Below are positions 3,483 through 64,000 of a stretch of DNA of 64,000 nt, in pieces. Below the pieces are notes generated by a model that did not search any database, was not told where the DNA came from, and worked only from the letters and a program-made list of their open reading frames with translations. Origin of the DNA: Alphaproteobacteria bacterium (GTDB taxonomy: Bacteria; Pseudomonadota; Alphaproteobacteria; GCA-016699305); assembly GCA_016699305.1 (NCBI GenBank), contig CP064970.1, forward strand, positions 1,034,066 to 1,098,065. Reading direction: 5' to 3'. The translations under genes were made by a program, and so were the position numbers. How positions within the stretch are numbered: position 1 is the first letter of the stretch; each line of letters opens with the position of its first letter.

Positions 3483-6451
3483 AATAGCCTCCATTCCACA
3501 CAAAACAGCGGCGTCACTTCGTGCCTGCTGTCCTGCAGTTGCCGTTCTAATTGATTAATAAGCTCTTCGCGCCTTGCGTCAATTTTATCTTGGCTCGTGA
3601 AAAGTTCATGTCGTTTTTGGGAGCGGCGTTTTTCGAAGGCGGCTTTTTGTTTTTGGAACGCCAATTTTTCCGCCAAACTAATCAATTGCTTAGATTGACG
3701 GTCGGCCTCGCGGATGTCTCGGTCGAGCTGCTTCAGTTCAATCTCAAGACCGGTCTTCAAGTCCTCGGCCCAACGGTCGAGCTTGTCGAGTTCCTCTTCA
3801 AAATAGCGGTGATTGCTCACTTCCGATTCGTTTAGGAGGGCTGCGACACGCACTGAACGATCAGCTTCCGCCGCATTCTGGTGTGGACAGGTGGAAAATT
3901 CTCCCTCGACCGAGGCCGAAAGCAGGAAGAGCTTCTCGCCAAATTCCTGCGGCAGGATTGCGCCGGTTTCGTCGCAAGTGATGAAGATCAGGGTTTCGGT
4001 TTCTTCGAAGGTTTTGATCGTCAGCTTGTCGAGCCAGAGCCATCCCTGTTTGCCGCGCTGCTCTTCCAGCAACGCAATCTTGTGCGGATAGGAGGAAAGG
4101 TCAAAAAGCAATGTTGCCGAAGGCGTCTCAAGCTCACGCCCCTTTTGAATAACGCGCTCCCCCATAAGATCGGACATGCGATAGGGATACCCCGTCACCG
4201 GAACCTTGGAGGAACCGCGCTTCGGCGTTGCAAGAGGATCGACCGGCTCGGCGGCCTTGGTTTCCAGATAATGATAAATGGGCGTGCGGTCACCATCGCT
4301 TGGCCTTTTCCCACGCGCGATGAAGGCGGCATCGTCGCCGAAGATCAGCTTTTCATCGTTGAAGAAGAACATCCCGTCATAGATGAATTTCGTCAGCTCC
4401 CAGAAATGATGCGTGACGGTGTCGATGCGCTTTTTTGTCGCCTCCATGCTGAACTTCAGATGTTTGGTCACGTCCTCGTCGAAATGCTCGAACAGCATGG
4501 TGCGCGTTTCGGCGATACGGCTTTGGATTGGCTCTTCCATTTCGGATTGAAGTTGCGTGAAGGCTCGTTCAATCTCTTCCGGCCTGCGGCAGGTTTCAAA
4601 AATCTCCAGCACGCGCTTTTCAAAGTCTATGCCGGACTCAACGCGGCCAAGAACCTCATCCGAAGCACCGAAAACGCCGTCGAAAAGCTGAAACTTCTCT
4701 TTTAGCAATTCATAGATGCGCTGATCGGCCAGATTGTCTTTGTTCAGAAAGTTGATGACGACCACATCGTGCTTCTGGCCGTAACGATGGCAACGGCCAA
4801 TGCGTTGCTCGATGCGCTGCGGATTCCAAGGCAGGTCGTAATTGACGATGAGTGAGCAGAACTGGAGATTGATGCCCTCGGCGGCGGCTTCGGTGGCAAT
4901 CATCACCTCGGCATGGTCACGGAAGAAATCGACCAAAGCCATGCGCATATCGACGTTTTTCGATCCCGTAATGCGGCCTGTCTCGGCGTTTTTGTCGAGC
5001 CAAAACGCATAAATGTCTTTGGCAAGATCGTCCGTGTTCTGGCCGTTGAAGGTCACGATTTTGCCGCGATACCCGTTGTCTTCCAGATACTCTTTCAAAT
5101 AACGCTGCGTGCGGCTGGATTCCGTGAAGACAAGAGCTTTGCGCGCACCACCAAGTTCCCCCATGCGAGCGAAGCCGGTTTGCAGCGATGTTAAGAGAGC
5201 CTTGGCTTTGGTTTCTATCTTGATCGAACGTGCTAGGGCTTCGAAACTGTTGATCTGCTCAATCTCGTAATTCAGTTTTTCGATGTCGATGTCTTTATGC
5301 TTGGGTGGGGCGGCTCGTTCTTCTTCCTCGCCATCCTCGGCATATTCGATGTCAATGTCCTGATCGGCTATAAACGCGCCACGCAGGTTCAGTTTTTCTT
5401 CCTTGCGGGTCTCGCGCATTTTCTCAAGGCGTGCTTTGATCGTTTTCAGCGTACCGACAAGCGCGAAGGACGATGAAGCGAGAAGTTTGCGGATGATGAG
5501 GACGACCAGTTTTCTTTGAGCCCACGGAATGGCGTAGGTATCTTGCTGGAGGAGAAAATCGGAAACTTCGTCGTAGAGCCTTTGTTCCTCGACAGATAGT
5601 CTGAACGGCTGTGTTATCGCTTCGCGGCGTGTGTAACGGATATATTCCAAAACCTGCCGCCGTAATGTGCGTTGAACAAACGGTGCGAGACGGGATTTCA
5701 GGTCGTCAATGTTGGGATTGCCGTTGACATACGCCGTTTTGAACGTGTCGATCCCGCCAAAAATCCGGTCGTCGATCAGCGAGGCAAGGCCGTAAAGCTC
5801 CATGAGCGAGTTTTGAAGGGGCGTTGCTGTTAAAAGCACCTTTTTATGATCCGCCAAGGCCGCCTGAATATTGCGGCCCATTTTATTGTCTTTCTTGAAC
5901 AGGTTTCGAAGCTTGTGGGCTTCGTCGATCACCACCAGATGCCACGGCATAGCCTTCATCTGCTCGGCATAGCGATTGGCGAATTGATAGGAAACGATGA
6001 CAACACCCGCAAAATCGAAGGGATCGCCATTTTGGCAACGCTCCGCATAATTGCTGCTTTCCAGTACAAGCGTGGGGAGGTTGAACTTTTCTTCCAGCTC
6101 AATCGACCATTGGCGGCGCAGGACGGCGGGACAAATGACGATGAGTCGCCGCTTATGTTCGGCCCATAGCTGGCAAAGCAAGATGCCGGCCTCAATGGTT
6201 TTGCCGAGGCCGACTTCGTCCGCCAGCATGACCCCCTTGGATAGGGGGGATCGAAGCGCAAAAAGCGCGGCCTCAATCTGGTGCGGATTAAGGTCTACGG
6301 CGGCGTCAAAAAGCGAAGTTGTAAGGCGATCAACAACCGCCGAGGCTTTCTTGGTCGAAATCTCGTGCGCAAAATACTTGGCGTGATAAGGGGTTAGGAC
6401 TGCTTTCGAGCACCTATTTTCTGCCCCAGATTGTTCTTCGTGTGCTCTCAT
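3479..6451 (-). CDS. SNF2-family (SF2) helicase/ATPase, 990 aa
   Basis: Motif I is LADEVGLGKT. Motif II is VVIDEAHKLRN. The SNF2 signature is LLTATPLQNSLMELYGL. Motif VI is QRIGRCHRYGQ. The C-terminal region has a long coiled-coil-like extension. Confidence 0.9.
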   Translation of the reverse strand: MRAHEEQSGAENRCSKAVLTPYHAKYFAHEISTKKASAVVDRLTTSLFDAAVDLNPHQIEAALFALRSPLSKGVMLADEVGLGKTIEAGILLCQLWAEHKRRLIVICPAVLRRQWSIELEEKFNLPTLVLESSNYAERCQNGDPFDFAGVVIVSYQFANRYAEQMKAMPWHLVVIDEAHKLRNLFKKDNKMGRNIQAALADHKKVLLTATPLQNSLMELYGLASLIDDRIFGGIDTFKTAYVNGNPNIDDLKSRLAPFVQRTLRRQVLEYIRYTRREAITQPFRLSVEEQRLYDEVSDFLLQQDTYAIPWAQRKLVVLIIRKLLASSSFALVGTLKTIKARLEKMRETRKEEKLNLRGAFIADQDIDIEYAEDGEEEERAAPPKHKDIDIEKLNYEIEQINSFEALARSIKIETKAKALLTSLQTGFARMGELGGARKALVFTESSRTQRYLKEYLEDNGYRGKIVTFNGQNTDDLAKDIYAFWLDKNAETGRITGSKNVDMRMALVDFFRDHAEVMIATEAAAEGINLQFCSLIVNYDLPWNPQRIEQRIGRCHRYGQKHDVVVINFLNKDNLADQRIYELLKEKFQLFDGVFGASDEVLGRVESGIDFEKRVLEIFETCRRPEEIERAFTQLQSEMEEPIQSRIAETRTMLFEHFDEDVTKHLKFSMEATKKRIDTVTHHFWELTKFIYDGMFFFNDEKLIFGDDAAFIARGKRPSDGDRTPIYHYLETKAAEPVDPLATPKRGSSKVPVTGYPYRMSDLMGERVIQKGRELETPSATLLFDLSSYPHKIALLEEQRGKQGWLWLDKLTIKTFEETETLIFITCDETGAILPQEFGEKLFLLSASVEGEFSTCPHQNAAEADRSVRVAALLNESEVSNHRYFEEELDKLDRWAEDLKTGLEIELKQLDRDIREADRQSKQLISLAEKLAFQKQKAAFEKRRSQKRHELFTSQDKIDARREELINQLERQLQDSRHEVTPLFCVEWRLL

Positions 6452-17688: not shown

Positions 17689-18813
17689 TTAGCTCCGTTT
17701 GCTTTTTACATGGGCACTATTGAGCCAATAGCGGGTGGATTTGCGTTCGCCGGTCCGGATAAGTACCCCTTTTTCGACAAGGTCGCGCAAGTCGCGAGTC
17801 ACAGTCGCACGCGGTGCACCCGTGATTGTAATGTAGTTTTCGGCGCTCAAACCACCCTTGAACCCTTCGATGCCTTCGCGGAAAATGCGGGCGAGGGCTT
17901 TTTCCTGCCTTATGTTCAACGCGCCGCGCACCTTATCATAAAGCTTGGTTTTTTCGATTAGGAAATCGACCGTAGCTTGCGTATAGGCCTGTGCCGTTAG
18001 GATCGTTTTGGAAAAATAGGCTAGCCAATCGTCGATTTGGTTGTCTTTGTTGTTGCGTTCTAATGCATCGTAATAGGCTTTTTTGCGCTGCTGGATGGTA
18101 TGCGAAAGCGCGATCAGCGAAGGCTGCCCCAAAGATTGAGCCAAGGCTTTTTCAGCCAAGCCCCGCGCGATCCGACCATTGCCGTCTTCAAACGGATGGA
18201 TGCAGACGAAATAAAGGTGCGCGATGCCGGCGCGTGTTAAGGCAGACAGCGGCATGGCCCCGCCGGGCGCGGTCTTGTTGAACCAAGAGATGAAGCGCGT
18301 CATCTCCCGCGTCATGGCTTTGGACGGAGGGGCTTCAAAATGAATCTTTGGTTTATAGATCGCACCGGAAACGACCTGCATGGGCTCTTGATGCGTGCGG
18401 TAACGTCCGATGTCTTTCAAATTGGTTCGCCCCGACATGATCCTTGTATGCCAGTCAAAGAGCGTTTCATGCGTCAGGGGATCGGCAAAATGACGATAGA
18501 GGTCGATCATCATATCGGCGATGCCGCGCTCGGCTGGCGGGATTTTCCCTTTGTCCGAATCCAACCCGAAATGCCGCCGAATGGACGAATGCAGGCTCGC
18601 CCGGTCGAGAATCTCGCCTTCGATCTCCGAGGTCTTATAGGCCTCGTCACTCATTAAATCGACCGTCAGGACGGTCTTGTCCGCGTCGCCGATATGTTTA
18701 TAACTGCCTTGCAGGATGCCGGATTGACGCAAGAAGGCCCCTTCCGCTTCCTCAAGCGAGGCTTTGTCGTAGGAGAATTTGGGCCAGTCTTCTTGTTGCC
18801 AATTCCAGATCAT
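17689..18813 (-). CDS. Fic/Doc-family protein (AMPylase-type) with a C-terminal wHTH
   Basis: The Fic motif HPFEDGNGRIARGL is present. Confidence 0.85.
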   Translation of the reverse strand: MIWNWQQEDWPKFSYDKASLEEAEGAFLRQSGILQGSYKHIGDADKTVLTVDLMSDEAYKTSEIEGEILDRASLHSSIRRHFGLDSDKGKIPPAERGIADMMIDLYRHFADPLTHETLFDWHTRIMSGRTNLKDIGRYRTHQEPMQVVSGAIYKPKIHFEAPPSKAMTREMTRFISWFNKTAPGGAMPLSALTRAGIAHLYFVCIHPFEDGNGRIARGLAEKALAQSLGQPSLIALSHTIQQRKKAYYDALERNNKDNQIDDWLAYFSKTILTAQAYTQATVDFLIEKTKLYDKVRGALNIRQEKALARIFREGIEGFKGGLSAENYITITGAPRATVTRDLRDLVEKGVLIRTGERKSTRYWLNSAHVKSKRS

Positions 18814-19986: not shown

Positions 19987-20516
19987 CTCTAATCAATAAG
20001 ATAATGTGGAGCAAGTTCGCTGCCAAGTATCATCCTCTCCGCCACGCCTATCCAAAATGGATAGGCCGTTTCTGGAACGCGATTGTTCCAACCAATTCAG
20101 AAATCTTCATATATTTCAACGGCAACTGGATCAGAGATTTTGAAACGCATTCTGCATCGCGCACATTTTCCGTGAACCCAGCGTGAACAGAGAGCAGAGA
20201 TTCTCTACAGCAACTGGACTTTCAAAGAAAAGTCCAGTTGCATATCCGCCAAGCACTTACAGCGTTTTTCGTGAAAATAAATGGTAGGGGGATGAGATTC
20301 GAACATAAAGCATTCAAGTGCGTAGTTTGCACCGAAGTCCACGGATTTTCACTGGGGAAGATCGCTGACGACACCGAATTGCTCAAAACTGCAGGCCCAT
20401 TTGAAAGAAGAATCAAAACGCCACTCCGTAAATTTGGGTTTTGTGGATAGTATTGACTGTTTCACTGTATTCGGATACAGTCAGAACACGTTTAATGAAC
20501 CACAGAAGAGAAAGCT

Positions 20517-21556: not shown

Positions 21557-21777
21557 GTAACGTCCGAACCGCCACCCATCCAAAATGGAGGGGTGTAAGG
21601 CATGTTATCACAGCAATTTCAACAAGTTATAAGTGATTGGAAATTCTGAACCAATAAGGACATTTATCCGAATTGGATTGGATAAAAATTCCTCGAGTCT
21701 GGTTCGAAAAATATGGTTGTTAACGGTTAGAGATGCGAAAACTCTCTACGGAACCCTACTTTTCAGTAGAGAGAAGT
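21557..21777 (+). repeat. ~220-bp repeat, copy 1 (REP-like head + conserved mini-ORF MRKLSTEP.FSVERS + 8-bp-stem hairpin)
   Basis: It is about 88% identical to 24101-24321. It contains the hairpin ctctctac...gtagagag at 21742-21773. Confidence 0.7.
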
Positions 21778-21943
21778 AGGAGCAACTTCGTTAGACACCC
21801 GCTTAGGCGAATGTCTTGGTCCCCCAGAACAGGATGGTGTTGTGTGATTTACCACTTGTTTACCCCCCCCCCCCCATTAAGTATGGTTAACGGGGACGAT
21901 TCGGCACGTCCCATCAAAAAAACGTTCACGGGCGGTGGAACCT

Positions 21944-24100: not shown

Positions 24101-24321
24101 GTAACGTCCGCTCCGCCACCCATCCAAATTGGATGGGTGAAGGTCAAATTATACTAGCAATTTCAACAAGTTATAAGTGATTGAAAATTCTGCCTCAATG
24201 AGGACATTTATCCGAATTGGATTGGATAAAAATTCCTCGAGTCGGGTTCGATAAGTATGGTTATTAACGGTCAGAGATGCGAAAACTCTCTACGGAACCC
24301 GACTTTTCAGTAGAGAGAAGT
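24101..24321 (+). repeat. ~220-bp repeat, copy 2
   Basis: It is a direct repeat of 21557-21777. It carries a second mini-ORF beginning MRKLSTEPDFSVERS. Confidence 0.7.
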
Positions 24322-24565
24322 TCGAACAATTTCGAAACTCAAGCGCTCGGTCAGCAGTCGTTGTGGAGCATGGTGCGTTCTAGAGTAAACAGAGACGTGT
24401 GGGCCATGCATCGTGGCTGGATCGTTCTTGGACGTGATGCGATTAGCAGTCATGGCTCTGGCACATCTGCAGAAAGACAGTAAAAGAATCCAACATCAAC
24501 GACATTGCCATTCACATGATCCGGCGCTATGGTAGTGAGTGGTTACTATCTTATGGGGATCAAAA

Positions 24566-28629: not shown

Positions 28630-29057
28630 GTCCTAAAGGAGATTTCTGAATGCTCGCAAAGAAAGTCGTGATAGTAGGTTATTGTTATTAAACGAGGAGA
28701 GGGCATCATCGCTCTCCCTATCGTTAGTTCGGATCCCAAACGCGCATTCGAAACGTATTAACCATCAGCCTCTTGTAGACAAAAATAAAGACGTGCATAA
28801 TCAACGCGTTAATATGGAGCATGTTCTTCCCCAGTCACGTCCGCCCCGCCAGCCTATCCAAATTGGATGGGGTCTAGAGAGAATTTCTTATCCGCATCAA
28901 GCCGTTGCGACGGTTCGTCTTTTCAGAGAGTGCATCCGGATTGGATGGATTGAATAGAGTTCGTGTACCGCGCTATTTTACCCTGAACAGTCGGTGAACA
29001 GAGCGCAGAGATTCTCTACCACAACCGGACCTCACAGAGAGAAAACGGAAGGTTTTT

Positions 29058-29942: not shown

Positions 29943-30208
29943 ACTAGTCTTGGTATCGGCGTTTTGAGCAATCAAAATGGACACCGATATCAAGAATTAC
30001 GAAAAATCAATGGGTTACAAAAACGCATAAAAACTTTTGTTCTTTTAAATCATATACATAACAAGGAGCCTGTTCTTCCCCAGTCACGTCCGCCCCGCCA
30101 TCCTACGCCTTTGGCTTCGGGTGGCAGGCCACCTTTGGTGGACTGACGCCCAATATAAAAAGTTGTAGGGTGTCTCCCGAAGCCTTTTGGCGTAGGGAGA
30201 CCGTCTCC

Positions 30209-30445
30209 ATGTGGTATGTCTATTTTCTTAGGCTCAGTAATGGGCATGTTTACGTCGGATCGACCAACGATTTGAAGCGGCGTTTTTCTTCACACCAATC
30301 TGGACAGGTTGAATCAACCAAGCCGCATCTACCCGCCAAACTGAAAAGCTACATTGCTGTTGAAACCGAAGATATAGCGAGAACGCTTGAAAGATACTTC
30401 AAATCCGGCTCCGGCAAGGCTTTTTCCAATAAGCGGTTTTGGTGA
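30209..30445 (+). CDS. Small GIY-YIG nuclease-family protein
   Basis: The GIY-YIG motif is MWYVYFLRLSNGHVYVGSTNDLKRRFSSHQSG. The C-terminus has a KSGSGKAFSNKRFW tail. Confidence 0.75.
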   Translation: MWYVYFLRLSNGHVYVGSTNDLKRRFSSHQSGQVESTKPHLPAKLKSYIAVETEDIARTLERYFKSGSGKAFSNKRFW

Positions 30446-30594
30446 GAATTAGGCACCATCTGATTGCCAGATAGGCCAAAACTCTCTAAAAGTTATGGTA
30501 GCTGTTGACTCGGTACGGCGCGGTTAAGTCAACGGGTTAGGTATCTGGATGTATTTCGTGTGGTGGGAGGAGACAACCAAAAGGAGAATGCATC

Positions 30595-31127: not shown

Positions 31128-31445
31128 ATGTTTTATGTCTATCTCATTCAAAGCGAAGCTTTTCCAGATCAACGCTACGTTGGATTCAGCACCGATCTGA
31201 AGGAGCGTTTGAAAACGCACAACGCGGGCGGCTCCGTTCATACGTCAAAATACAAACCTTGGCGTTTGGTCAGCTATCACGCCTTTGCCGATAAGCGCAA
31301 AGCTCAGGAGTTCGAATATTATCTCAAATCCGGTTCCGGCAGGGCCTTTGCCAATAAGCGGTTTTGGGGAGAACTTGGGATTGATGGTGCGAAGAATCTC
31401 CGAGTAAAACCTACGCTTCAGGCGAACATAACGAACTCAAGTTAA
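31128..31445 (+). CDS. Small GIY-YIG nuclease-family protein (paralogue of the 30209..30445 gene)
   Basis: The motif MFYVYLIQSE...RYVGFSTDLKERLKTHN is present. The C-terminus has the tail KSGSGRAFANKRFW. Confidence 0.75.
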   Translation: MFYVYLIQSEAFPDQRYVGFSTDLKERLKTHNAGGSVHTSKYKPWRLVSYHAFADKRKAQEFEYYLKSGSGRAFANKRFWGELGIDGAKNLRVKPTLQANITNSS

Positions 31446-47485: not shown

Positions 47486-47628
47486 ATCGGCATCCCCGGC
47501 GCTGGCGCAAGTGTTTGACTCGCCTGCCCGTGCCGGTCTAGAAAGGTGTCCTTGCATAAGAGCCGCGCTCATCAGGGGCGCGGGGGGCTTGTGTGTTGTG
47601 TGTTCTGGTGTGTGGGAGAACAGGTATC

Positions 47629-47952
47629 ATGTACGCCATCGTCAAAACCGGCGGTCAGCAATTCAAGGTCAGCGAAGGCGATGTCCTGCGCGTGAACCGC
47701 AGACCCGAGGAACCCGGCTCCGCCGTGAAGATTGAAGAAGTTCTGATGCTGGGCAACGAGACCGGCCAAGTCAGCGTGGGCGCGCCCGTTGTGGCCGGTG
47801 CCAGCGTGTCGGCCACGGTCGAGGCGCATACGCGCGGCGCACGCATCTTGATCTTCAAAAAGCGTCGCCGCCAGAATTCGCGTCGCAAGAACGGCCATCG
47901 CCAGGATTACACGATGATCAAGATCACCGGCATCCAAGGCAAGGTCGCTTAA
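47629..47952 (+). CDS. rplU: 50S ribosomal protein L21
   Basis: The protein starts MYAIVKTGGQQFKVSEGDVLRV. Confidence 0.9.
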   Translation: MYAIVKTGGQQFKVSEGDVLRVNRRPEEPGSAVKIEEVLMLGNETGQVSVGAPVVAGASVSATVEAHTRGARILIFKKRRRQNSRRKNGHRQDYTMIKITGIQGKVA

Positions 47953-48012
47953 GAGAGTTAAACTTCGCATCCGGGCGATGCCTGGATCGGTCAATGGCAG
48001 GAGTTCAAGGGT

Positions 48013-48264
48013 ATGGCACATAAAAAAGCGGGCGGTTCATCGCGCAATGGACGCGACACGGCGGGCCGCCGTTTGGGTGTGAAGCTGTTCGGCGGTCAAA
48101 TGGCCGAAGCGGGCAATATTCTGGTGCGCCAGCGCGGCACGCCGTATAAGCCCGGCCTGAATGTCGGCGTGGGCAAGGATCACACCTTGTTCGCCATGGC
48201 CGATGGCCATGTGCGCTTCAGCAAAGGCTTTGCCGGCACCACCGTCTCGATCGAGACGGCCTAA
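48013..48264 (+). CDS. rpmA: 50S ribosomal protein L27
   Basis: The protein starts [29 protein letters not shown]. Confidence 0.9.
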
Positions 48265-48298
48265 CATCGGGTTCATACGGGACACCGTCTCGTTTAAA

Positions 48299-48326
48299 AG
48301 GGGCCGCAAGGCCCCTTTTCTTTTCC
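48299..48326 (+). terminator. Rho-independent terminator after rpmA
   Basis: The sequence aaaaggggccgcaaggccccttttctttt has stem GGGGCC/GGCCCC, loop GCAA and a T-run. Confidence 0.65.
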
Positions 48327-48488
48327 CGCTGAGGGAGAGATGGGTAGCGCTATGCCGAGGGTCGTTGGAAGAAAGGATAAGCCTTTATGCGGCGCTTATA
48401 GGGGGCCGCGCTTTCATATTTTAAGAGATTGTTAAGATGTGAATGACATGGCTATATTCAATTGCCCTGCTTCCTATCGCAATAAGGA

Positions 48489-48959
48489 ATGGACGCCATG
48501 CTAAAAAAGACGATCATCGGTTTTATGCTGGCCCTGTTCGCAGGACCTCTCTCCGCTCATGCTGAAATGCCCGGACAGCCTTGCACCGCCGCGCAAATCG
48601 GCACAACGAAAATGGCCGATGACAAGCAAAATATCATCGCTTGCCTAGAAACGGGTAAAGCCGCCCCGGAGAACGTCCAAGAATGGAAAGCTATGACATC
48701 ATCAGGTGGTGGCGGATTAACGGGAGGGTGCACGTTAGCCTATAGGCCAGGTGACCGTAACAGGGTAGGTTCTTCATTATATGTCCAAGAATCTTGGGGA
48801 ATGGGCTGTAGAAAAAACGGCGCATCTGTAAGCATGCAAACAACGGTTCTCTATGGTAGCACCGCTTGCAATAGCCTGGCGGCTCAAGGGTACGAGTGCG
48901 GTATCTCTGAAAAAAAAGATGGATTGGAATCGACGGCATGCCTATGCGTGAAAAAGTAG
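48489..48959 (+). CDS. Small secreted Cys-containing protein (paralogue A)
   Basis: The signal peptide is MDAMLKKTIIGFMLALFAGPLSAHA. The first 68 aa and ~95 bp upstream are near-identical to the 49197..49865 gene. Confidence 0.6.
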   Translation: MDAMLKKTIIGFMLALFAGPLSAHAEMPGQPCTAAQIGTTKMADDKQNIIACLETGKAAPENVQEWKAMTSSGGGGLTGGCTLAYRPGDRNRVGSSLYVQESWGMGCRKNGASVSMQTTVLYGSTACNSLAAQGYECGISEKKDGLESTACLCVKK

Positions 48960-49196
48960 CTTTTTTCTCTAAGGGTTCTTGTTCGTCGCCTTTGCTGGCT
49001 TCCTCGTTGGGTGGGCATATATTCAGCGGGATACGTTGTGCGCTTTGTGTAAAGTAAGTTGGCAATACCGTTGATCACACGGGGTAACACCGGGGCGCGG
49101 CTCTTATAGGGGGCCGCGCTTTCATATTTTAAGAGATTGTTAAGATGTGAATGACATGGCTATATTCAATTGCCCTGCTTCCTATCGCAATAAGGA

Positions 49197-49865
49197 ATGG
49201 ACGCCATGCTGAAAAAGACGATCATCGGTTTTATGCTGGCCCTGTTCGCAGGACCTCTCTCCGCTCATGCTGAAATGCCCGGACAGCCTTGCACCGCCGC
49301 GCAAATCGGCACAACGAAAATGGCTGATGACAAGCAAAACATCATCGCTTGCCTCCTTACTGGCAAAACCGCCCCGGAAAATGTTCAGGAATGGAAAGAT
49401 ATGGCAAATACAGACAAAAATATATCTTACTCACTAACGTGTGAAGACTGGAAAGACTCTGGATTCAGTAGCAAGGATGCTTGTATCAAAGATGGTCGCT
49501 GGCATCTTGTTTATATAAACGATGATAATGGGAAAACGACATTTGGAAGTCTTAAAGAGTTTAAAAGCTATACCGATCAGGGGGCTGATGTAAAAAACAA
49601 CGATTACAATGGAGACAGTCATATTTGTCAGACTGTTGTGTGGAAAGGTAATCTAGTGCACTGCCTAGACGGCGTTCGTGTACAAGGTGAGGTATGGAGA
49701 AATGATCTCAAGTATAATGACAATAAGATTGGGCTGGGTGCTGTGGCACGCAGGTCTGATGGAGTAAGAGTATCTTCAAATGTTGTTCCAAGAAGTAATG
49801 GAGATTTAGAATTTGCTGTTTTCCCAACTCCGGGGATGGCGTTCAAATGGTTTGTAAGGTTTTAA
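49197..49865 (+). CDS. Small secreted protein (paralogue B; same leader and N-terminus, divergent C-terminus)
   Basis: A near-identical ~290-bp 5' region (49103-49400) is shared with 48395-48690. Confidence 0.6.
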   Translation: MDAMLKKTIIGFMLALFAGPLSAHAEMPGQPCTAAQIGTTKMADDKQNIIACLLTGKTAPENVQEWKDMANTDKNISYSLTCEDWKDSGFSSKDACIKDGRWHLVYINDDNGKTTFGSLKEFKSYTDQGADVKNNDYNGDSHICQTVVWKGNLVHCLDGVRVQGEVWRNDLKYNDNKIGLGAVARRSDGVRVSSNVVPRSNGDLEFAVFPTPGMAFKWFVRF

Positions 49866-49931
49866 ATAAAAGGTGTATCAAGGATATGGCGGTTACAATG
49901 CTGATGATCGCACAGGGTAAGGCTGTAGGGA

Positions 49932-50657
49932 ATGAGGCTGCTCATGAGGAATGCCATGATTGCTCTTGCGACGCTGCTGGTCGGTGTCAGTCTTGGTCTA
50001 CCTAGCTTTGCCGCAGCATGGGCTACCCCTGGCGCGGCTTGTACCCAAGAGGGCGCAAACGCTAACAGCGATGGCTTTCTCACCTGTACCGGCGGGGTCT
50101 GGGTATCCAATGCCGTCCTACTGGGTACGACATCCGCCACATGCGATTCCACAAAGGCCGGATATATCCGTTATACCGGCGGCCAATTTGAGGGCTGCAA
50201 TGGAACGGGGTGGATTTAGTTGGCGAGTAGTTCGCCCCTGAAAGTCTACAAGGCGGATGGCGTTACAGTATTGGGGACCTTGGTTGGTAGTTATGATAGA
50301 TCTTGCCAAGGTATTGTCTATGCAGACAGTAATGGGATTCTTAATAATCTTTCTATGGGCGCCTGCTATTCGACTGGTGGATATGCCAATGTGTTTTTCT
50401 CGGGATCAAACTGTACTGGAACTACCTATTTTGATGGCAACACCCCAACCAATAACCTTGGTTACTGCTGTACCGGATCAGCTTCTTGTACTACAAATAA
50501 ATGTGCGAGTGCGGGCTATGTAACTTCACTTGGTTATGTGCCATATGGAAGCTTCCGAAATAGTGCGGGGGCTTGCACTAATAATTCGTCCACAGTTTAT
50601 CCCATGGCAACAGTTACGCCTTGCAGTGATAACGGCACTCCCTGCGTCGTGAAATAA
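49932..50657 (+). pseudogene. Secreted Cys-rich protein interrupted by a single in-frame TAG (50217-50219)
   Basis: ORFs 49932..50219 and 50220..50657 are in the same frame and separated only by TAG. The first carries the signal peptide (MRLLMRNAMIALATLLVGVSLGLPSFAAAWA). Both halves are Cys-, Gly- and Thr-rich. Confidence 0.5.
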
Positions 50658-50734
50658 GCAACCTTACCGATTTCTTTCCGGTTTAGTTTTTGTGTTCGTA
50701 GCGTCTGCCGACATCCTTGTTATCCTGCCGAACC

Positions 50735-50990
50735 ATCTTTTGACTTTTGCGTTTTAACGGGCCGTGGATGGCCTGAAAGAGGCTGAATCGCAGACTCTTT
50801 TCTGAAATCCCGCACCATCGGCCAGGTCAGGAGATGGACTCCCGCCTTCGCGGGAGTGACTCACGAGGAGAGAAAGGCGCACAACAAACCATGCCGCGCT
50901 CATTGAAGCATCACCCTCTCAACTTGGTCATGCTCGCGCATGCGGGCATCCATCACCTGTCATTCACGCTGGTGCTGAATCGCAGAATCC
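50735..50990 (+). repeat. ~260-bp MITE-like repeat element, copy 1
   Basis: It is about 93% identical to 54473-54730. Internal palindromes are gactcccgccttcgcgggagtgactc and gc(g/c)cgcgca(g/t)gcgggc. The motif gctgaatcgcaga recurs near both ends. Confidence 0.7.
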
Positions 50991-51203
50991 TTCATCTCAA
51001 TCACAGCGGGCCGCTTCATAGGCCTTTGTGAACCGCGCCTAAATATGGGATCACGGAAATATGACGAGCGGCGAGCGCTGAAGGGAAATCCACCCACGCG
51101 CCTTGACGCTCGGGGATAATATTCCATTTTTCTCCTGAAAGAGCTGGGAAAGTCCATCTCTTACGCCCATGATCTTCTCATGCGCCATAAAAAGGATCGC
51201 CCC

Positions 51204-51713
51204 ATGCCCGCCGCCGTCAAGCCCGAAGCCCAAGATGCCGCCGCGCCCTTTGTGGGAGATAAAGCCCCCGATTTCACATTGCCCGCTTTGGGCGCGGCGA
51301 CCGATACGGTGCGACTGCGCGACCTGCTGGATCATTGGGTGGTGCTGTATTTCTACCCCAAGGACAACACATCCGGCTGCACGGTCGAAGCCTGCGATTT
51401 TCGCGACTCCTTCGCCACTCTCAAGCGCGCAGGGGCGTTGGTTGTGGGCGTGTCGCGCGATAGCCTGAAAAGCCATCAATCCTTCCAAACCAAACACGAT
51501 CTGCCCTTCATCCTGGCCGCCGATGAAGACGGCGCGACCTGCCAAGCCTATGGCGTCTGGGTCGGCAAGAGCATGTATGGCCGTTCCTATATGGGGATCG
51601 AGCGCAGCACTTTCCTAATCGATCCCAAAGGCCGCATCCACCACCTCTGGCGCAAAGTCAAAATCCCCGGACATGTGCAAGACGTGTTGGAGGTGATGAA
51701 TAAGGGGAAGTAA
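51204..51713 (+). CDS. bcp: Thiol peroxidase Bcp (peroxiredoxin)
   Basis: The peroxiredoxin motif is YFYPKDNTSGCTVEAC. Confidence 0.8.
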   Translation: MPAAVKPEAQDAAAPFVGDKAPDFTLPALGAATDTVRLRDLLDHWVVLYFYPKDNTSGCTVEACDFRDSFATLKRAGALVVGVSRDSLKSHQSFQTKHDLPFILAADEDGATCQAYGVWVGKSMYGRSYMGIERSTFLIDPKGRIHHLWRKVKIPGHVQDVLEVMNKGK

Positions 51714-51777
51714 GACCCTAAAAGAAGAAGGGCCGCGCTTTCCGCACGGCCCCGTCTTTTTCCCGAACGCCTAATCG

Positions 51778-53115
51778 TTAGGCGGGCACAGGCGGAGTCA
51801 GTATGGGCGGCAAACCGCGTTCCTTGCTTGGCCGCACGGCCCAAGCACGAGAGGCCGGCTGAGGCGCGGGCGGCGCATCCGTGACGTCCTTGATCAAGGC
51901 CACACGTTTCTTCAGTTCGTCGCCTTGATATCTCTGTGCCAACTGTCCTTCCATCATCTTGCGCATGGTGGCGCGTTCGATATCACTGCCACGCAGATCA
52001 ACACTGCGGCTACCTCCGACAGTCCATGTGTCGAAACGGTCCACCACATACCCCACCATCAATTTCAGGGCATGATCTCTGATCTCGCGCGGGTATTCAG
52101 GCTCACCTTCGGGCGAAGGAAGCAAATCCAGGCTTTGATAGCCATTGGCCCCAAAACTGTGTTGCAGCACCGCCATTTTCGATTGGGACAAGCCAGGGGA
52201 CTCGCTTTGAATCCTCACATGAATGGCCGTGTTGTGGGGCTTGGGATCGGCCAGATCCAACGTATAGAAACACGATTGATCAAAAGGAACCGTCGAATAG
52301 CCGGGCGGCGTTTCTTGCATGATAGAACCGATGACTGTGGCCCATGTCTCATGCGTTGCCCGATGAGCCTGCCATTCCGGCGCGGACGGATTCCCATGAT
52401 ATGGCGGGTTACGCAAATAACCGCCGTTCAAAGAATTGGCCCCCAAAGGCCCCGATATTCCTGGTTGAGCCCCTGGCGAAGAAGAAGATGCGCCGATACC
52501 TGCTTGCGACGCCGGTCGCGTATGTGGTGTGGGCGCGGCGGCGTTCTGATGCGGAACTGCAGGCGAGAGCATCGACGACAACGCCTCATCAATCAGTTTG
52601 TACGCATCTTCAACATTTGAATGCGCTCCCCAAGACTGCCGCAGCTGGGCTAGGCGAGCCATGACTCTGGCATAAGCCGACAATTTCTTCGTCGGATCCG
52701 CATTTGCTGGCGCTTTAATCTCACGAAGGGCAGTGAGCAGGTCACTCACTTGCTGGTTAAAGTCATGATGCGGACCGCCAGGCTGCTTGTCTTGCTGGGG
52801 AATGGCATCCCGTACCGCAACCAAGGATTCCATGACTGTTTTCATGGTTTCTTTTCTTTGTTCGGCAGACCCACTCGCCCCAAACGCCATCAGACTCCGC
52901 ATTCTGGTCATTTGCGTCTTTTGAAAGAGCGGATAATCATGAATGTGGTGGAATTGAAAATTCCGTGTCAGCCGCTTGGTAAGAGCTGTGTGCACCTTAT
53001 CACGCATCGAATGGGGATCGATGCTGCGGTCAAGCATCTCTTGGTATTCCCTGTGGGCCGCATCCGCATCTGTCGCGGCCAAGCGCATCAGCGCTGCAAT
53101 ATCAGTCCGTGCCAT
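51778..53115 (-). CDS. Hypothetical Pro/Gly/Ser-rich protein
   Basis: This is a 445-aa ORF with no recognisable motif. A bidirectional terminator-like hairpin lies at 51727-51765, between it and bcp. Confidence 0.45.
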   Translation of the reverse strand: MARTDIAALMRLAATDADAAHREYQEMLDRSIDPHSMRDKVHTALTKRLTRNFQFHHIHDYPLFQKTQMTRMRSLMAFGASGSAEQRKETMKTVMESLVAVRDAIPQQDKQPGGPHHDFNQQVSDLLTALREIKAPANADPTKKLSAYARVMARLAQLRQSWGAHSNVEDAYKLIDEALSSMLSPAVPHQNAAAPTPHTRPASQAGIGASSSSPGAQPGISGPLGANSLNGGYLRNPPYHGNPSAPEWQAHRATHETWATVIGSIMQETPPGYSTVPFDQSCFYTLDLADPKPHNTAIHVRIQSESPGLSQSKMAVLQHSFGANGYQSLDLLPSPEGEPEYPREIRDHALKLMVGYVVDRFDTWTVGGSRSVDLRGSDIERATMRKMMEGQLAQRYQGDELKKRVALIKDVTDAPPAPQPASRAWAVRPSKERGLPPILTPPVPA

Positions 53116-53420: not shown

Positions 53421-54230
53421 ATGTGGAAGGCTGTGGCGTTGGGATTGGCGCTGATTTGGGGCGCAGGCGCGGCATCCGCCGCTGAATCTTGGCCGCCGGG
53501 CAGTGCCTGGCTGTTGGGGCAAGCCAGGAAACAACCCGATTTCGCCCAGGCGGAAAGACTGCATCCCAACTTCTATCCGACGCGCGACGGACAAAGTTTT
53601 ATCGTGGTCTGGCAGCCTCAGCGCGAAGCACCCAAAAAGTGGATCGTCTCGCTGCCCGGCACGGGAGGCTTCGCGACCAAGGATTTATCCATCTGGTATC
53701 CGCATCTTCAGGGCCGGAATGTCGGCGTGGTGAATGTGCAATGGTGGCTGGGACGCGGCGACCGGACCGAAGATTATTACACCCCGTCCCAAATATACCG
53801 CGAGATCGACTTGATCCTGGCGCGGCTGGGAGTCGCCCCAGGATCGGCCCTGTTGCACGGTTTCAGCCGGGGTTCGGCCAATATCTATGCCGTGGCGGCA
53901 TTGGATCGGACGAAAGGGCACCAATATTTCTCGACCATCATCGCCCATTCAGGCAGCGCCAATGAGGGCTATCCCCCCACGCAAGAAATCGTCCGGGGAG
54001 CCTATGGCGCACGTCCCTTTGCCGGAACCCGCTGGATCACCGTCTGCGGCGAGCGCGATTCCAACCCCGAACGCGATGGCTGCCCCGCCATGCGCCGCAC
54101 CGGCACATGGATCAAAGGTCTGGGCGGGACGATCGGCCTAGCCATCGAAGACCCGGAATACGGACATGGCGCGTTGCACCTGAACCCCATCAATGCCCGC
54201 AAGGCACTGGACGATTTCCTGGGACGATAG
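53421..54230 (+). CDS. Secreted alpha/beta-hydrolase (esterase/depolymerase-like)
   Basis: A signal peptide is present. The nucleophile elbow is GFSRGS. An Asp and a His lie downstream. Confidence 0.55.
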   Translation: MWKAVALGLALIWGAGAASAAESWPPGSAWLLGQARKQPDFAQAERLHPNFYPTRDGQSFIVVWQPQREAPKKWIVSLPGTGGFATKDLSIWYPHLQGRNVGVVNVQWWLGRGDRTEDYYTPSQIYREIDLILARLGVAPGSALLHGFSRGSANIYAVAALDRTKGHQYFSTIIAHSGSANEGYPPTQEIVRGAYGARPFAGTRWITVCGERDSNPERDGCPAMRRTGTWIKGLGGTIGLAIEDPEYGHGALHLNPINARKALDDFLGR

Positions 54231-54251
54231 GCTTGCTTTACGCCCTATCCG

Positions 54252-54437
54252 GCTGACCACAGCCCCACGCCAGCGCGGACTTGGCGCATCGTGGCCTCGG
54301 CTTCGGTGGCGGCCAGCTCGGTATGCTGCTTGACGCTGCTTTGCGCGAACAACACGCAGTGCGCGGGGTCGATCCCCGCCGCGATATAGGCCGCCGCGAT
54401 TTCGCGCGTATTGGTCGCCAAGTTTCCCGCATGTTCG
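54252..54437 (-). pseudogene. Internally deleted, 5'-truncated duplicate of trpS
   Basis: Bases 54252-54321 match trpS 56258-56327, with 2 mismatches. Bases 54314-54437 match trpS 56986-57109 at 100%. The junction is at an 8-bp direct repeat, cagctcgg, that occurs at both deletion endpoints in intact trpS. Confidence 0.8.
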
Positions 54438-54472
54438 AGGTAGAGGTGGTTCAGCCTTCCTCCTGGAGACCG

Positions 54473-54730
54473 TCTTTTGACTTTTGCGTTTTAACGGGCT
54501 GTGGATGGCCTGAAAGAGGCTGAATCGCAGACTCTTTTCTGAAATCCCGCACCATCGGCCAGGTCAGGAGATGGACTCCCGCCTTCGCGGGAGTGACTCA
54601 CGAGGAGAGAAAGGCGCACAACAAACCATGCCGCGCTCATTGAAGCATCACCCTCTCATTTTAGTCATGCCCGCGCAGGCGGGCATCCATCACCCGTCGT
54701 TTACGCTGACGCTGAATCACAGACTCTTAC
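54473..54730 (+). repeat. ~260-bp MITE-like repeat element, copy 2
   Basis: See copy 1. It lies immediately next to the trpS remnant. Confidence 0.7.
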
Positions 54731-54822
54731 CCAACAACGGCGGATGGAGCCTTTTCATAGATTTCCACAAACAGCGCCGAAATAGAGGCATAAAGCGGCA
54801 GGCCGCTTTCGTGGGTTTCCTG

Positions 54823-56073
54823 CTAAATTCTAGGGGTATCTGATGCTCTTTGCTCGTGGCTTTGATTTGGTCTGACCGCTTTCGGATTCGCGTTAAGATG
54901 CTTTTCAAGCAGGGGGAAAGCCCCTTTAAACCACAGCCCCAGCCTTGCATAGACATCTTCTTGCCCAAGCGGTGGCTTGGCGTGGACCGCGAGCACCAAC
55001 TGACCCATGGTAGGATTAGCCCCGGCCAATCGGGGGAATATCTCCCGCCATTTAACGTATTCTTCCTTGTCCCACAATTTACGCGTTTGTTCTTTGCGCC
55101 TGGCTAACTGTTCTTTTACTGGCAAATCCTGCGGTATCTGGTCGAATATTAATCTCTGCTCGTGATAGAAATCGGGATGCAGGTTCAGCTGGAACCAGTT
55201 CATCGTGCACGTCGCCGCGATAACCTCGTGGATATACTGCCGTACGGCGGCGCATTTCTCGGGCACCTCCAAGAATTCTTCCAAACGGTTGGCGATATCC
55301 GCATCGCAGATGCCCGGGACCCTAAGCCGGGATTCCATCGTCGGCCCCATGCCGCCCGAGTTATAATCGTCATAGGCCATAAAACCACCAAGGCCGAGAT
55401 CGTGATTGCGCTGCGACCAAGGAACATCGCTGCCGGGCCCATGATCAGGGAAGGGAGGCAGATAGCTGCCCAGCGGCAAGACTAATTCTAGGTCCGGCCA
55501 TTTGCCTAACGCGACTCCATAGCGAAATCCGCTAGGCAAGACGCGTTCGGACGGATCCTCGCGCCCTAGGAATAACCTGTTACATTTTCCTTCAACACTT
55601 CTTTTCCGCGTCATCCAAGCGGCTTCATGAGCCAGCAAGTCGTGCACGATCCCATCGATCCATTCCGCGCGCTTGGGCGACCTTTCGGCGACATCCTTAA
55701 GGGCCGCCGCACGGATTGATAAGTTGCTTTCGATGACGTCCTTGGGCATCGGCCAGTCGGAGCGACGCAGGGCGCGAAGATTTGCTCGGCCATCTTTTTT
55801 CCAATGAATGGGAACGATTTTCTCGATCATCGCCTCGCCCAGATGATGCCGTAAATGTTCAACGAAATGCTCCACTATCATGGGAGGCAGATCTATGTCC
55901 AAGTCAAGATCCCCGTAAGAATCCATTTTCCATGCGCATGGATCGACATCCTTGCCTGCGCTGGCCCGCATTCTGGACAGCTGAGATTCAAACATGATGG
56001 CGGGACCAAAAACCCTTATCAGCCATTCTGTGGCTTGCTCAAAAGTGTGTTGGTGGCGATCATCTTGTGTCAT
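54823..56073 (-). CDS. Hypothetical cytoplasmic protein, 416 aa
   Basis: The ORF is clean and there are no motifs. It lies between the trpS remnant/MITE and intact trpS. Confidence 0.5.
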   Translation of the reverse strand: MTQDDRHQHTFEQATEWLIRVFGPAIMFESQLSRMRASAGKDVDPCAWKMDSYGDLDLDIDLPPMIVEHFVEHLRHHLGEAMIEKIVPIHWKKDGRANLRALRRSDWPMPKDVIESNLSIRAAALKDVAERSPKRAEWIDGIVHDLLAHEAAWMTRKRSVEGKCNRLFLGREDPSERVLPSGFRYGVALGKWPDLELVLPLGSYLPPFPDHGPGSDVPWSQRNHDLGLGGFMAYDDYNSGGMGPTMESRLRVPGICDADIANRLEEFLEVPEKCAAVRQYIHEVIAATCTMNWFQLNLHPDFYHEQRLIFDQIPQDLPVKEQLARRKEQTRKLWDKEEYVKWREIFPRLAGANPTMGQLVLAVHAKPPLGQEDVYARLGLWFKGAFPLLEKHLNANPKAVRPNQSHEQRASDTPRI

Positions 56074-56247
56074 CGCGTTCTCTCCAAGACAAGAAACACC
56101 GGCGATACGTATCGTATTAGCTCAGCCGTCTGATAAGGTAAACAGTCTTCCCTCTATAGCGATGGGTCAGGCCAGAAGAACCATCCTCCAGCTACGGCCC
56201 AACTCGGCCCTACATCCCGAACGCGAGGCCAGCCCATTCTTTCTTGA

Positions 56248-57264
56248 TCAGTCCCCCGCTGACCACAATCCCACGCCAGCGCGGACTTGGCGCATCGTGG
56301 CCTCGGCTTCGGTGGCGGCCAGCTCGGCGCTGCGGGATAGGATGGCGTCTAGATGCGCGGCATCGGACATCAAGCGGCGCATATCGGCGGTGATCGGGGC
56401 CATTTGCGCCACGGTCAGATCCGCCAGTTTCTCCTTGAAGGTGGAAAAAGACGCGCCCGCATACTCGGCCAACACCGCCTCGCGCGATGTATCGGCAAGG
56501 GCGGCGTAGATCGATATCAGATTGTCGGCTTCGGGGCGCGATTCCAACTCCGCCAGCGTGGCGGGCAGCGGGTGCGGATCGGTCTTGGCCTTGCGGATCT
56601 TCAAGGCGATGGCATCGGCGTCATCGGTCAGGTTGATGCGCGAATAATCGGACTCGTCCGATTTGCTCATTTTCTTGGTGCCGTCGCGCAGCGACATCAC
56701 TCGCGCGGCCTGGCCCTGGATCACCGGCTCGGGCAAGGGGAAAATCTCGGTCCCGAAGGCGCGATTGAACGCGCCCGCGATATCACGCGCCAATTCCACA
56801 TGCTGCTTTTGATCGTCGCCCGTGGGCACATGGGTGGCCTTGTACATCAAGATATCGGCGGCCATCAGCACCGGATAGGCGTATAGGCCCAGCCCCGCTT
56901 GCTCTTTGTGTTTGCCCGCTTTGTCCTTGAACTGCGTCATGCGGTTCAGCCATCCCATGGGCGTGATGCAGGAAAATATCCAGCCCAGCTCGGTATGCTG
57001 CTTGACGCTGCTTTGCGCGAACAACACGCAGTGCGCGGGGTCGATCCCCGCCGCGATATAGGCCGCCGCGATTTCGCGCGTATTGGTCGCCAAGTTTCCC
57101 GCATGTTCGGGCGTGGTCAGGCCATGTAGATCCGCGATGAACAGGAAATTTTGCGCTTGGCTTTGCATACGAACCCAGGGCTTTAAGGCCCCCAGATAAT
57201 TCCCCAAATGCAATCCCGACCCCGTGGCGCGAATACCGGAAACGATGCGTTTTTGCGTGGTCAT
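56248..57264 (-). CDS. trpS: Tryptophan--tRNA ligase
   Basis: The HIGH-type motif is GSGLHLGNYLG. The KMSKS motif is present. Confidence 0.9.
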   Translation of the reverse strand: MTTQKRIVSGIRATGSGLHLGNYLGALKPWVRMQSQAQNFLFIADLHGLTTPEHAGNLATNTREIAAAYIAAGIDPAHCVLFAQSSVKQHTELGWIFSCITPMGWLNRMTQFKDKAGKHKEQAGLGLYAYPVLMAADILMYKATHVPTGDDQKQHVELARDIAGAFNRAFGTEIFPLPEPVIQGQAARVMSLRDGTKKMSKSDESDYSRINLTDDADAIALKIRKAKTDPHPLPATLAELESRPEADNLISIYAALADTSREAVLAEYAGASFSTFKEKLADLTVAQMAPITADMRRLMSDAAHLDAILSRSAELAATEAEATMRQVRAGVGLWSAGD

Positions 57265-57306
57265 GTGCCGAATCCCTTATGTTTGGGTTATGTGCCGTAA
57301 AGAGCT

Positions 57307-59385: not shown

Positions 59386-64000
<4,615 letters not shown>

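Follow-up and report, generated by a model that had tools for sequence, protein, structure and literature searches.

The icd gene of Escherichia coli K-12 runs into the prophage e14, at whose other end lies a C-terminal pseudogene, icdC, and the 3′ ends of icd and icdC differ mainly by synonymous or conservative changes (PMC13626634). Salmonella genomic island 1 (SGI1) is integrated at the last 18 bp of trmE (thdF), and is bounded by imperfect direct repeats of the 3′ end of that gene (PMC3285670). Here we describe a locus that invites comparison with these systems at trpS, the gene encoding tryptophanyl-tRNA synthetase (TrpRS), in an uncultivated, deeply branching alphaproteobacterium (Alphaproteobacteria bacterium, GTDB lineage GCA-016699305). 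The locus is situated in a 64,000-nucleotide stretch of the 2,060,775-bp contig CP064970.1 (assembly GCA_016699305.1, forward-strand positions 1,034,066 to 1,098,065), hereafter referred to as the window, and comprises an intact trpS gene and, on the other side of an insert of 1.8 kb, a remnant of a second trpS copy. Our favoured conclusion, to which we assign a probability of roughly 0.55, is that a recent insertion-duplication left the remnant behind as a real, non-functional scar, which would as such date and locate a recent gene acquisition in this organism.

A truncated and internally deleted copy of trpS

The intact trpS gene (56248-57264, minus strand; protein accession: QQR68241.1) encodes a protein of 338 amino acids, which scored 298 bits against TIGR00233 over residues 4-333 (cut-off 176.75) and matched PF00579, the Pfam tRNA-synt_1b family, with an E-value of 1.9e-67; it is a bona fide tryptophan-tRNA ligase. 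The remnant was compared with this gene by a BLASTN alignment of positions 54230-54460 against 56200-57300, together with a repeat search across the whole window. It was found to be a 5′-truncated, internally deleted pseudogene fragment (54245-54437, minus strand) with its own TAG stop codon at 54245-54247, and is named by PGAP as a 58-aa hypothetical protein (IPI58_05095). Two pieces of trpS make up the fragment. The first, piece A (54313-54437, minus strand), is identical at 125/125 positions to 56985-57109, corresponding to trpS nt 156-280 and codons 52-94, whilst the second, piece B (54249-54321, minus strand), matches 56255-56327, corresponding to nt 938-1010 and codons 313-337, at 70/73 positions. 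An earlier note on this DNA, prepared from the sequence alone, had placed the remnant at 54252-54437 and claimed 98-100% identity to trpS; both the remnant and its near-identity were confirmed, though its left edge is located 3 nt further out, at 54249. The longest exact repeats obtained in 10 shuffles of window positions 1-59300 reached only 14-17 nt, which excludes a chance origin for the match between remnant and gene.

Pieces A and B overlap by the 9 nt CCAGCTCGG, a direct repeat that is present twice in intact trpS (56319-56327 and 56985-56993) and of which a single copy has been kept at the deletion junction of the remnant (54313-54321). The earlier note had reported this microhomology as 8 bp in length; the repeat was indeed found at both endpoints, but measures 9 bp. 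The trpS stretch absent from the remnant (56328-56984, minus strand), which holds the KMSKS motif, amounts together with one copy of the repeat to 666 bp, or 222 codons, such that the reading frame is preserved across the implied deletion. About ten pairs of direct repeats of at least 9 bp exist within trpS, one of which was used by the deletion. With CCAGCTCGG at both parental endpoints and one copy at the junction, the pattern expected of deletion between short direct repeats is present, and the proposal that a duplicated trpS copy lost 666 bp in a probably microhomology-mediated event is well supported.

Little of the synthetase is retained in the remnant, which consists solely of codons 52-94 and 313-337 and is without the start codon, the N-terminal HIGH region and the KMSKS loop. 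Its score against PF00579 was 16.2 bits, under the cut-off of 21.1.

Evidence for the remnant was also obtained from short-read data. The representative, at 90%, of the cluster that contains the window TrpS is a 115-aa ENA protein (P0123), composed of TrpS residues 1-93, the junction and the C-terminus of the remnant (...WSAG). The DNA encoding this protein is a 501-bp contig with a k-mer coverage of 0.32 (ERZ15185458 NODE_495735, here L081), which is 100% identical to the window from 57376 to 56985 and from 54437 to 54204, the two stretches overlapping in the 125-bp repeat formed by piece A and its trpS counterpart. This contig, which is independent of the metagenome-assembled genome (MAG) from which the window originates, thus spans the deletion junction as well as the left flank and the three bases particular to the remnant, hence the remnant is not an artefact of long-read assembly or polishing. 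A check for mis-assembly of repeats had been recommended in the earlier note, and for the remnant itself the outcome is that it is real.

Origin of the duplication

The three mismatches between the remnant and trpS are positioned at gene nt 996, 997 and 1008 (window 54263, 54262 and 54251), in codons 332 (GGA/GGG), 333 (TTG/CTG) and 336 (GCG/GCC), and all three are synonymous. They are confined to the terminal 15 of 189 aligned nt, an arrangement with a probability of about 5e-4 under uniform mutation, and the probability that three random substitutions in the tail would all be synonymous is about 0.02. The remnant ends in ...WSAG followed by TAG and intact trpS in ...WSAGD followed by TGA, with similarity ending at the stop codon; the tails accordingly differ by three synonymous changes and one extra codon within the last 7 codons. 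Such a pattern is unlike post-duplication drift. Two distinct trpS 3′ ends are thus present, each a genuine gene end shaped by selection and set in a different downstream context, which favours the arrival of DNA from a related lineage over a purely internal tandem duplication.

The segment between the two copies (54438-56254) has a GC content of 0.538 and encodes one protein, of 416 amino acids (54823-56073, minus strand; QQR68240.1). GC content at third codon positions (GC3) is 0.59 in the 416-aa gene, as opposed to 0.77 in trpS, 0.81 in mlaF, 0.77 in uvrD and 0.70-0.81 across the core genes of the window. Beyond the remnant, in convergent orientation to it, is a gene encoding 269 amino acids (53421-54230, plus strand), the GC3 of which is also core-like, at 0.70. 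The insert is therefore compositionally different from both of its core-like flanks and is foreign-looking. It gave no match against a plasmid collection. Only 14 nt separate the stop codon of the 269-aa gene from that of the remnant, and because this spacing is as tight as expected of neighbours, the 269-aa gene is likely to be the original neighbour of trpS.

A filler of 23 nt (54438-54460) separates the remnant from a repeat element (54461-54784), a further copy of which is located at 50723-51045; the two copies are 87% identical in a gapped alignment, with a 258-bp core that is 95% identical. A 12/13 match of the filler to 56943-56955 was considered as another patch of trpS, but was rejected (E = 0.3). 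The earlier note had listed the repeat element, as a miniature inverted-repeat transposable element (MITE), together with the 416-aa open reading frame (ORF) between the remnant and the intact gene. Both features were found as described, whilst the MITE label remains unproven, as neither clear terminal inverted repeats nor target-site duplications were found in the two copies visible in the window. The copy within the insert has a 21-nt direct repeat inside it, and at about 54563-54699 it forms a long hairpin with imperfect pairing. Rfam models of plant and animal microRNA precursors matched this hairpin below threshold (31.6 bits, gathering score 150), through mimicry of structure and not through homology. 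On the opposite side of the 416-aa gene, the spacer between its start and the trpS stop codon (56074-56247) provides a good ribosome-binding site, GGAGAG. A perfect 12-bp palindrome, CGATACGTATCG, which could serve as an operator, is also present in the spacer at 56103-56114; the 416-aa gene starts about 30 nt downstream of it.

These features bear on the alternative raised in the earlier note, namely an intragenomic tandem duplication that included part of trpS, one copy of which then decayed. Duplications of this type are common, and the 100% identity of the copies over 183 nt would be readily accommodated. The segment 54438-56254 is, however, unique apart from the dispersed repeat, no second copy of it is found beside the remnant, and 56074-56254 bears no relation to the sequence on the left of the remnant; an unrepeated insert and unrelated outer flanks both contradict tandem duplication. 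Neither the two differing synonymous tails, with their separate stop contexts, nor the contrast in composition would be explained, and we therefore regard this origin as unlikely.

No close genome was found amongst GTDB species representatives, where the best TrpS was 65% identical, without conserved synteny, and in the protein database TrpS identities reached at most 69% over the full length, the ceiling for any other TrpRS found, and 74% for residues 95-338. Two DNA scans of JGI metagenomes, using a wobble-degenerate pattern and an exact 27-mer respectively, found nothing, and exact look-ups of junction-spanning ORFs returned none. Some exact-protein look-ups of window genes likewise gave no record. 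Cluster members nonetheless led to three Logan contigs of relatives with 93-95% DNA identity to the window. The first of these (L085) encodes mlaE-mlaF-DUF1653-trpS, the last as nt 1-137 only, a second from the same strain (L087) carries trpS nt 1-657, and the third (L086) carries trpS nt 1-877. Both L086 and L087 cross trpS nt 156-280 without a break. Logan contigs are the product of a de Bruijn assembly with k = 31, in which a second, exact copy of 125 bp would interrupt the contig. For the strain of the window itself (window proteins QQR68237-68243), the exact 269-aa, 416-aa, DUF1653 and MlaF proteins are on record from Logan, whereas TrpS and the 58-aa remnant ORF are on record from NCBI only. 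Since trpS of the relatives is unbroken at nt 156-280 whilst TrpS and the remnant of this strain are missing from Logan, these data suggest that the duplication occurred in this lineage and not in its relatives of about 94% identity, which would make it recent. Near-complete identity of the remaining 73-bp and 125-bp direct repeats likewise fits a young event.

The divergence of trpS from these relatives is uneven, amounting to 11% over nt 1-138, all of it synonymous, 0.4-1.5% over nt 139-480, and about 6% beyond. Counted by site, the first 138 nt contain 15 differences, all synonymous, and the next about 250 nt contain one, nt 139-383 being nearly identical to the relatives. Across the window from 59435 to 56388, comparison with the three contigs revealed patchy divergence, ranging from 0 to 15 mismatches per 100 nt, a pattern suggestive of frequent inter-lineage recombination. 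Given that the edge of low divergence is near the truncation point, a conversion tract with the remnant as its boundary was considered, but was down-weighted, as equally sharp patches are present across mlaE-mlaF.

Under the insertion-duplication that we favour, trpS and the 269-aa gene would once have been convergent neighbours. Incoming DNA with the 416-aa gene, the repeat element and the trpS 3′ end of a related but distinct lineage would then have recombined inside trpS, either by single-crossover (Campbell-type) integration of a circle or by homology-anchored (homology-facilitated) illegitimate recombination (HFIR; PMC6382021). The outcome would have been an intact hybrid trpS with the foreign segment directly after it, whilst the 5′-truncated original 3′ part of the gene, from nt 156 to the native stop, would have been pushed to the far side, still abutting the 269-aa gene. 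This dead copy may then have lost 666 bp through RecA-independent slippage or annealing between the 9-bp direct repeats. The earlier note had suggested that a recent event delivered the 416-aa gene beside trpS, and this is favoured by the composition of the insert, its unduplicated state, the differing tails and the unbroken trpS of the relatives; the means of delivery, along with the event order, the donor and the recombination route, we infer. The 73-bp and 125-bp repeats that remain are recombination substrates. An addiction model, in which excision of the insert would be lethal, was also considered and rejected, as an intact trpS would be regained if the 73-bp repeats recombined with each other.

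Several observations weigh against this reading. An empty site was not seen, the contigs of the relatives (to nt 137, 657 and 877) all ending short of the trpS 3′ end, and no recombinase, transposase, integrase or phage gene was found in the insert or elsewhere in the 17-59 kb portion of the window. The two copies are identical over 183 nt, yet differ at 3 positions in the last 15 nt, whereas the copies in a simple two-allele reciprocal Campbell product should differ wherever donor and recipient differ. Identity outside the tail requires that the crossover lay very close to it, that gene conversion followed, or that the donor was identical elsewhere. The junctions 54437|54438 and 56254|56255 are known from the MAG assembly alone, and the short-read contig L081 runs from the trpS 5′ end into the remnant via the 125-bp repeat.

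This last link is most simply a low-coverage de Bruijn chimera formed through the 125-bp repeat; alternatively, it is a real pop-out between the 125-bp repeats, present as a minor haplotype and encoding a TrpRS without residues 94-315. It could also be taken, together with the source of the window being a MAG, as a sign that the remnant and the intact gene do not reside on one molecule, having been joined through misassembly or a mixture of strains. We consider this improbable. The junction, tail and left flank of the remnant are 100% identical in short reads, an assembler would not create a deletion between 9-bp repeats plus three synonymous variants, and a contig with a k-mer coverage of 0.32 is easily accounted for by the fusion of two loci via the 125-bp repeat. 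If the arrangement in L081 were the only one, moreover, the organism would be left with a TrpRS lacking residues 94-315. A practical consequence is that short-read assemblies are broken or misled by the 125-bp and 73-bp repeats, and that a chimeric 115-aa 'TrpS' from a 501-bp contig is now a cluster representative in a large protein database. It was also observed that a search with full-length TrpS misses TrpS itself, its cluster being represented by this probable chimera.

The remnant is described above as non-functional, and a function is indeed very improbable, whether through the 58-aa peptide or through regulation of trpS, with the remnant as the source or target of antisense action along the 183 nt that are perfectly identical. 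The deletion did keep the reading frame, a TTG-start ORF is present and annotated, and read-through from the convergent 269-aa gene would give RNA antisense to trpS. An in-frame outcome, however, is a one-in-three chance, and neither a promoter-like site nor a Shine-Dalgarno sequence was found at the remnant. Furthermore, as far as contigs L086 and L087 show, conservation of the remnant does not extend to relatives, and no other sequence is found in the protein-database cluster of its ORF.

The 416-aa protein family and the wider window

The 416-aa protein had no match in Pfam, PHROGs, NCBIfam or PADLOC, and a word-indexed search of 5.8 billion proteins retrieved itself alone. A full HMMER scan of 1.84 billion representatives did, however, yield six distant relatives of 26-43% identity, all of which can be aligned from end to end. 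The AlphaFold model derived from the family alignment was fairly confident (predicted local distance difference test, pLDDT, 78.8; predicted template modelling score, pTM, 0.74), and found no fold match in the PDB or BFVD, all hits having E >= 0.07 and a query-normalised TM score (TMq) below 0.2. The 416-aa ORF is thus a real gene of a very rare family and is no recognisable recombinase.

The genomic contexts of the family raise the question of whether its members travel to particular sites. In one contig (L083), a 289-aa distant paralogue (E = 0.002), which has the invariant FPLL motif, is located between the 3′ end of an intact mnmE gene (...FCIGK*, 2517-2536) and a copy of the last 25 nt of mnmE. 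This copy (1504-1528) differs by 1 mismatch and 1 gap, scores 40 against a shuffle maximum of 25, and lies 5 nt from the stop codon of a 415-aa family member; the repeat arms (1504-1528 and 2517-2542) are 1,013 bp apart. The layout is the same as that of the 269-aa gene, remnant, insert and trpS in the window. Both family genes in this contig are preceded by a 36-nt motif with a palindrome, TGTGAAC..GTTCAC (156-191 and 1539-1574; 33/36 identical), whilst the two proteins behind this shared motif are only about 20% identical. In a second contig (L082), a 412-aa homologue is flanked on one side by a tRNA-Trp gene (2066-2141), which precedes secE-nusG, and on the other by the 3′ end of another tRNA gene (3670-3697) at the contig edge. 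In alphaproteobacteria this position is usually occupied by tuf. A further family member (L084) follows an autotransporter gene. With duplicated target ends in two of four family contexts, the comparison is suggestive, and a dedicated mini-islet is not established.

On this basis, the 416-aa family might be viewed as the cargo of very small, recombinase-less islets that settle at the extreme 3′ ends of conserved translation-related genes (trpS in the window, mnmE in L083, a tRNA in L082), each duplicating the 3′ end of its target, with the remnant as an attR-like scar and not the trace of a single accidental recombination; we consider this generalization unlikely. At trpS itself, the corresponding explanation is a site-specific event in which a small integrase-less element aimed at the 3′ ends of conserved genes brought in the 416-aa gene, the intact tail being attL-like and the remnant attR-like, with the integrase acting in trans or since lost. 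A layout like that of icd-e14-icdC (PMC13626634) speaks for such an event, as do the mnmE paralogue, which occupies the attB position of SGI1 (PMC3285670), and the family member against a tRNA gene 3′ end. The remnant, though, contains trpS nt 156-280, which lie upstream of the tail by about 700 nt and far from any plausible 3′ core, such that the original duplication would have been about 860 bp, far longer than att repeats. No integrase was found, and the four family contexts differ from one another, only two having a duplicated target end. Site-specific integration at trpS is unlikely in our assessment, and insertion-duplication is preferred. If the mnmE parallel were to hold more widely, the 416-aa family would nevertheless mark minimal islets at gene 3′ ends.

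Further features were noted elsewhere in the window. A 1,515-aa ORF (59386-63933, minus strand) consists almost entirely of low-complexity repeats, including units of about 45 aa rich in Gly, Gln, Ser, Thr and Ala, 17-aa Ser/Gly units and long poly-proline runs, with a local GC content of up to 0.82. The region 47572-53115 encodes a run of genes without a Pfam match (149, 156, 222, 145 and 445 aa), interrupted by a gene for an AhpC/TSA peroxiredoxin, in which GC3 is low and variable (0.40-0.61). Of these, the 156-aa and 222-aa genes have in common a 300-nt block that is 95% identical (48389-48688 and 49097-49396). The last gene of the run (51778-53115, minus strand) is called by PGAP as 355 aa (QQR68237.1), whilst the ORF from the first ATG encodes 445 aa; the exact 445-aa product is on record from a Logan contig, and in another Logan contig a variant with a one-base frameshift encodes 173 aa. 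Several further intergenic repeats, with identities of 76-91%, are dispersed over 20-31 kb (21557-21803 and 24101-24347; 28810-28856 and 30059-30105; 20153-20219 and 28964-29030; 30399-30453 and 31324-31378), in the vicinity of genes for a class A beta-lactamase-like protein, a chemoreceptor, a TetR regulator and MacB-type efflux. A Fic/DOC family protein with an N-terminal DUF4172 domain is encoded at 17689-18813 (minus strand).

Comparison with described systems

The e14 prophage at icd, where phage 21 behaves likewise, offers the closest likeness in layout. Here too, synonymous differences separate the two tails, and a displaced 3′ fragment of the target borders the original flank at the distal end of the insert, as indicated by the stop codon of the remnant lying 14 nt from that of the 269-aa gene. 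In contrast, e14 is a 15-kb prophage with its own integrase, whereas the insert at trpS is 1.8 kb and without a recombinase, and the trpS remnant additionally holds a far-upstream piece (nt 156-280) and has undergone a secondary deletion of 666 bp. The trpS repeats extend beyond a short 3′ core, a difference that applies both to e14 at icd and to SGI1 at trmE. SGI1 is paralleled most directly by the relative of the 416-aa family in L083, which shows the same arrangement at mnmE; with respect to the window, SGI1 has direct repeats of 18 bp and its own Int and Xis, whilst the duplication at trpS spanned hundreds of bp and no integrase was found.

Campbell-type insertion-duplication and HFIR (PMC6382021) resemble the locus in other respects, in that one intact and one 5′-truncated copy flank the inserted DNA, and in that a homologous anchor in a conserved gene brings in unrelated DNA. 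These processes are known mainly from laboratory and transformation experiments, whereas the donor and the circle at trpS are hypothetical, and in HFIR the recipient DNA is usually deleted rather than duplicated. The locus would exemplify foreign DNA that is anchored by homology in an essential gene without inactivating it. The later deletion in the remnant has no unusual feature relative to deletions between short direct repeats, with a 9-bp repeat at endpoints 666 bp apart and one copy retained. Deletions in lacI are the classic example of this process. In comparison with all of these systems, the trpS locus is an ordinary genome scar left by a known kind of event, and not a new system.

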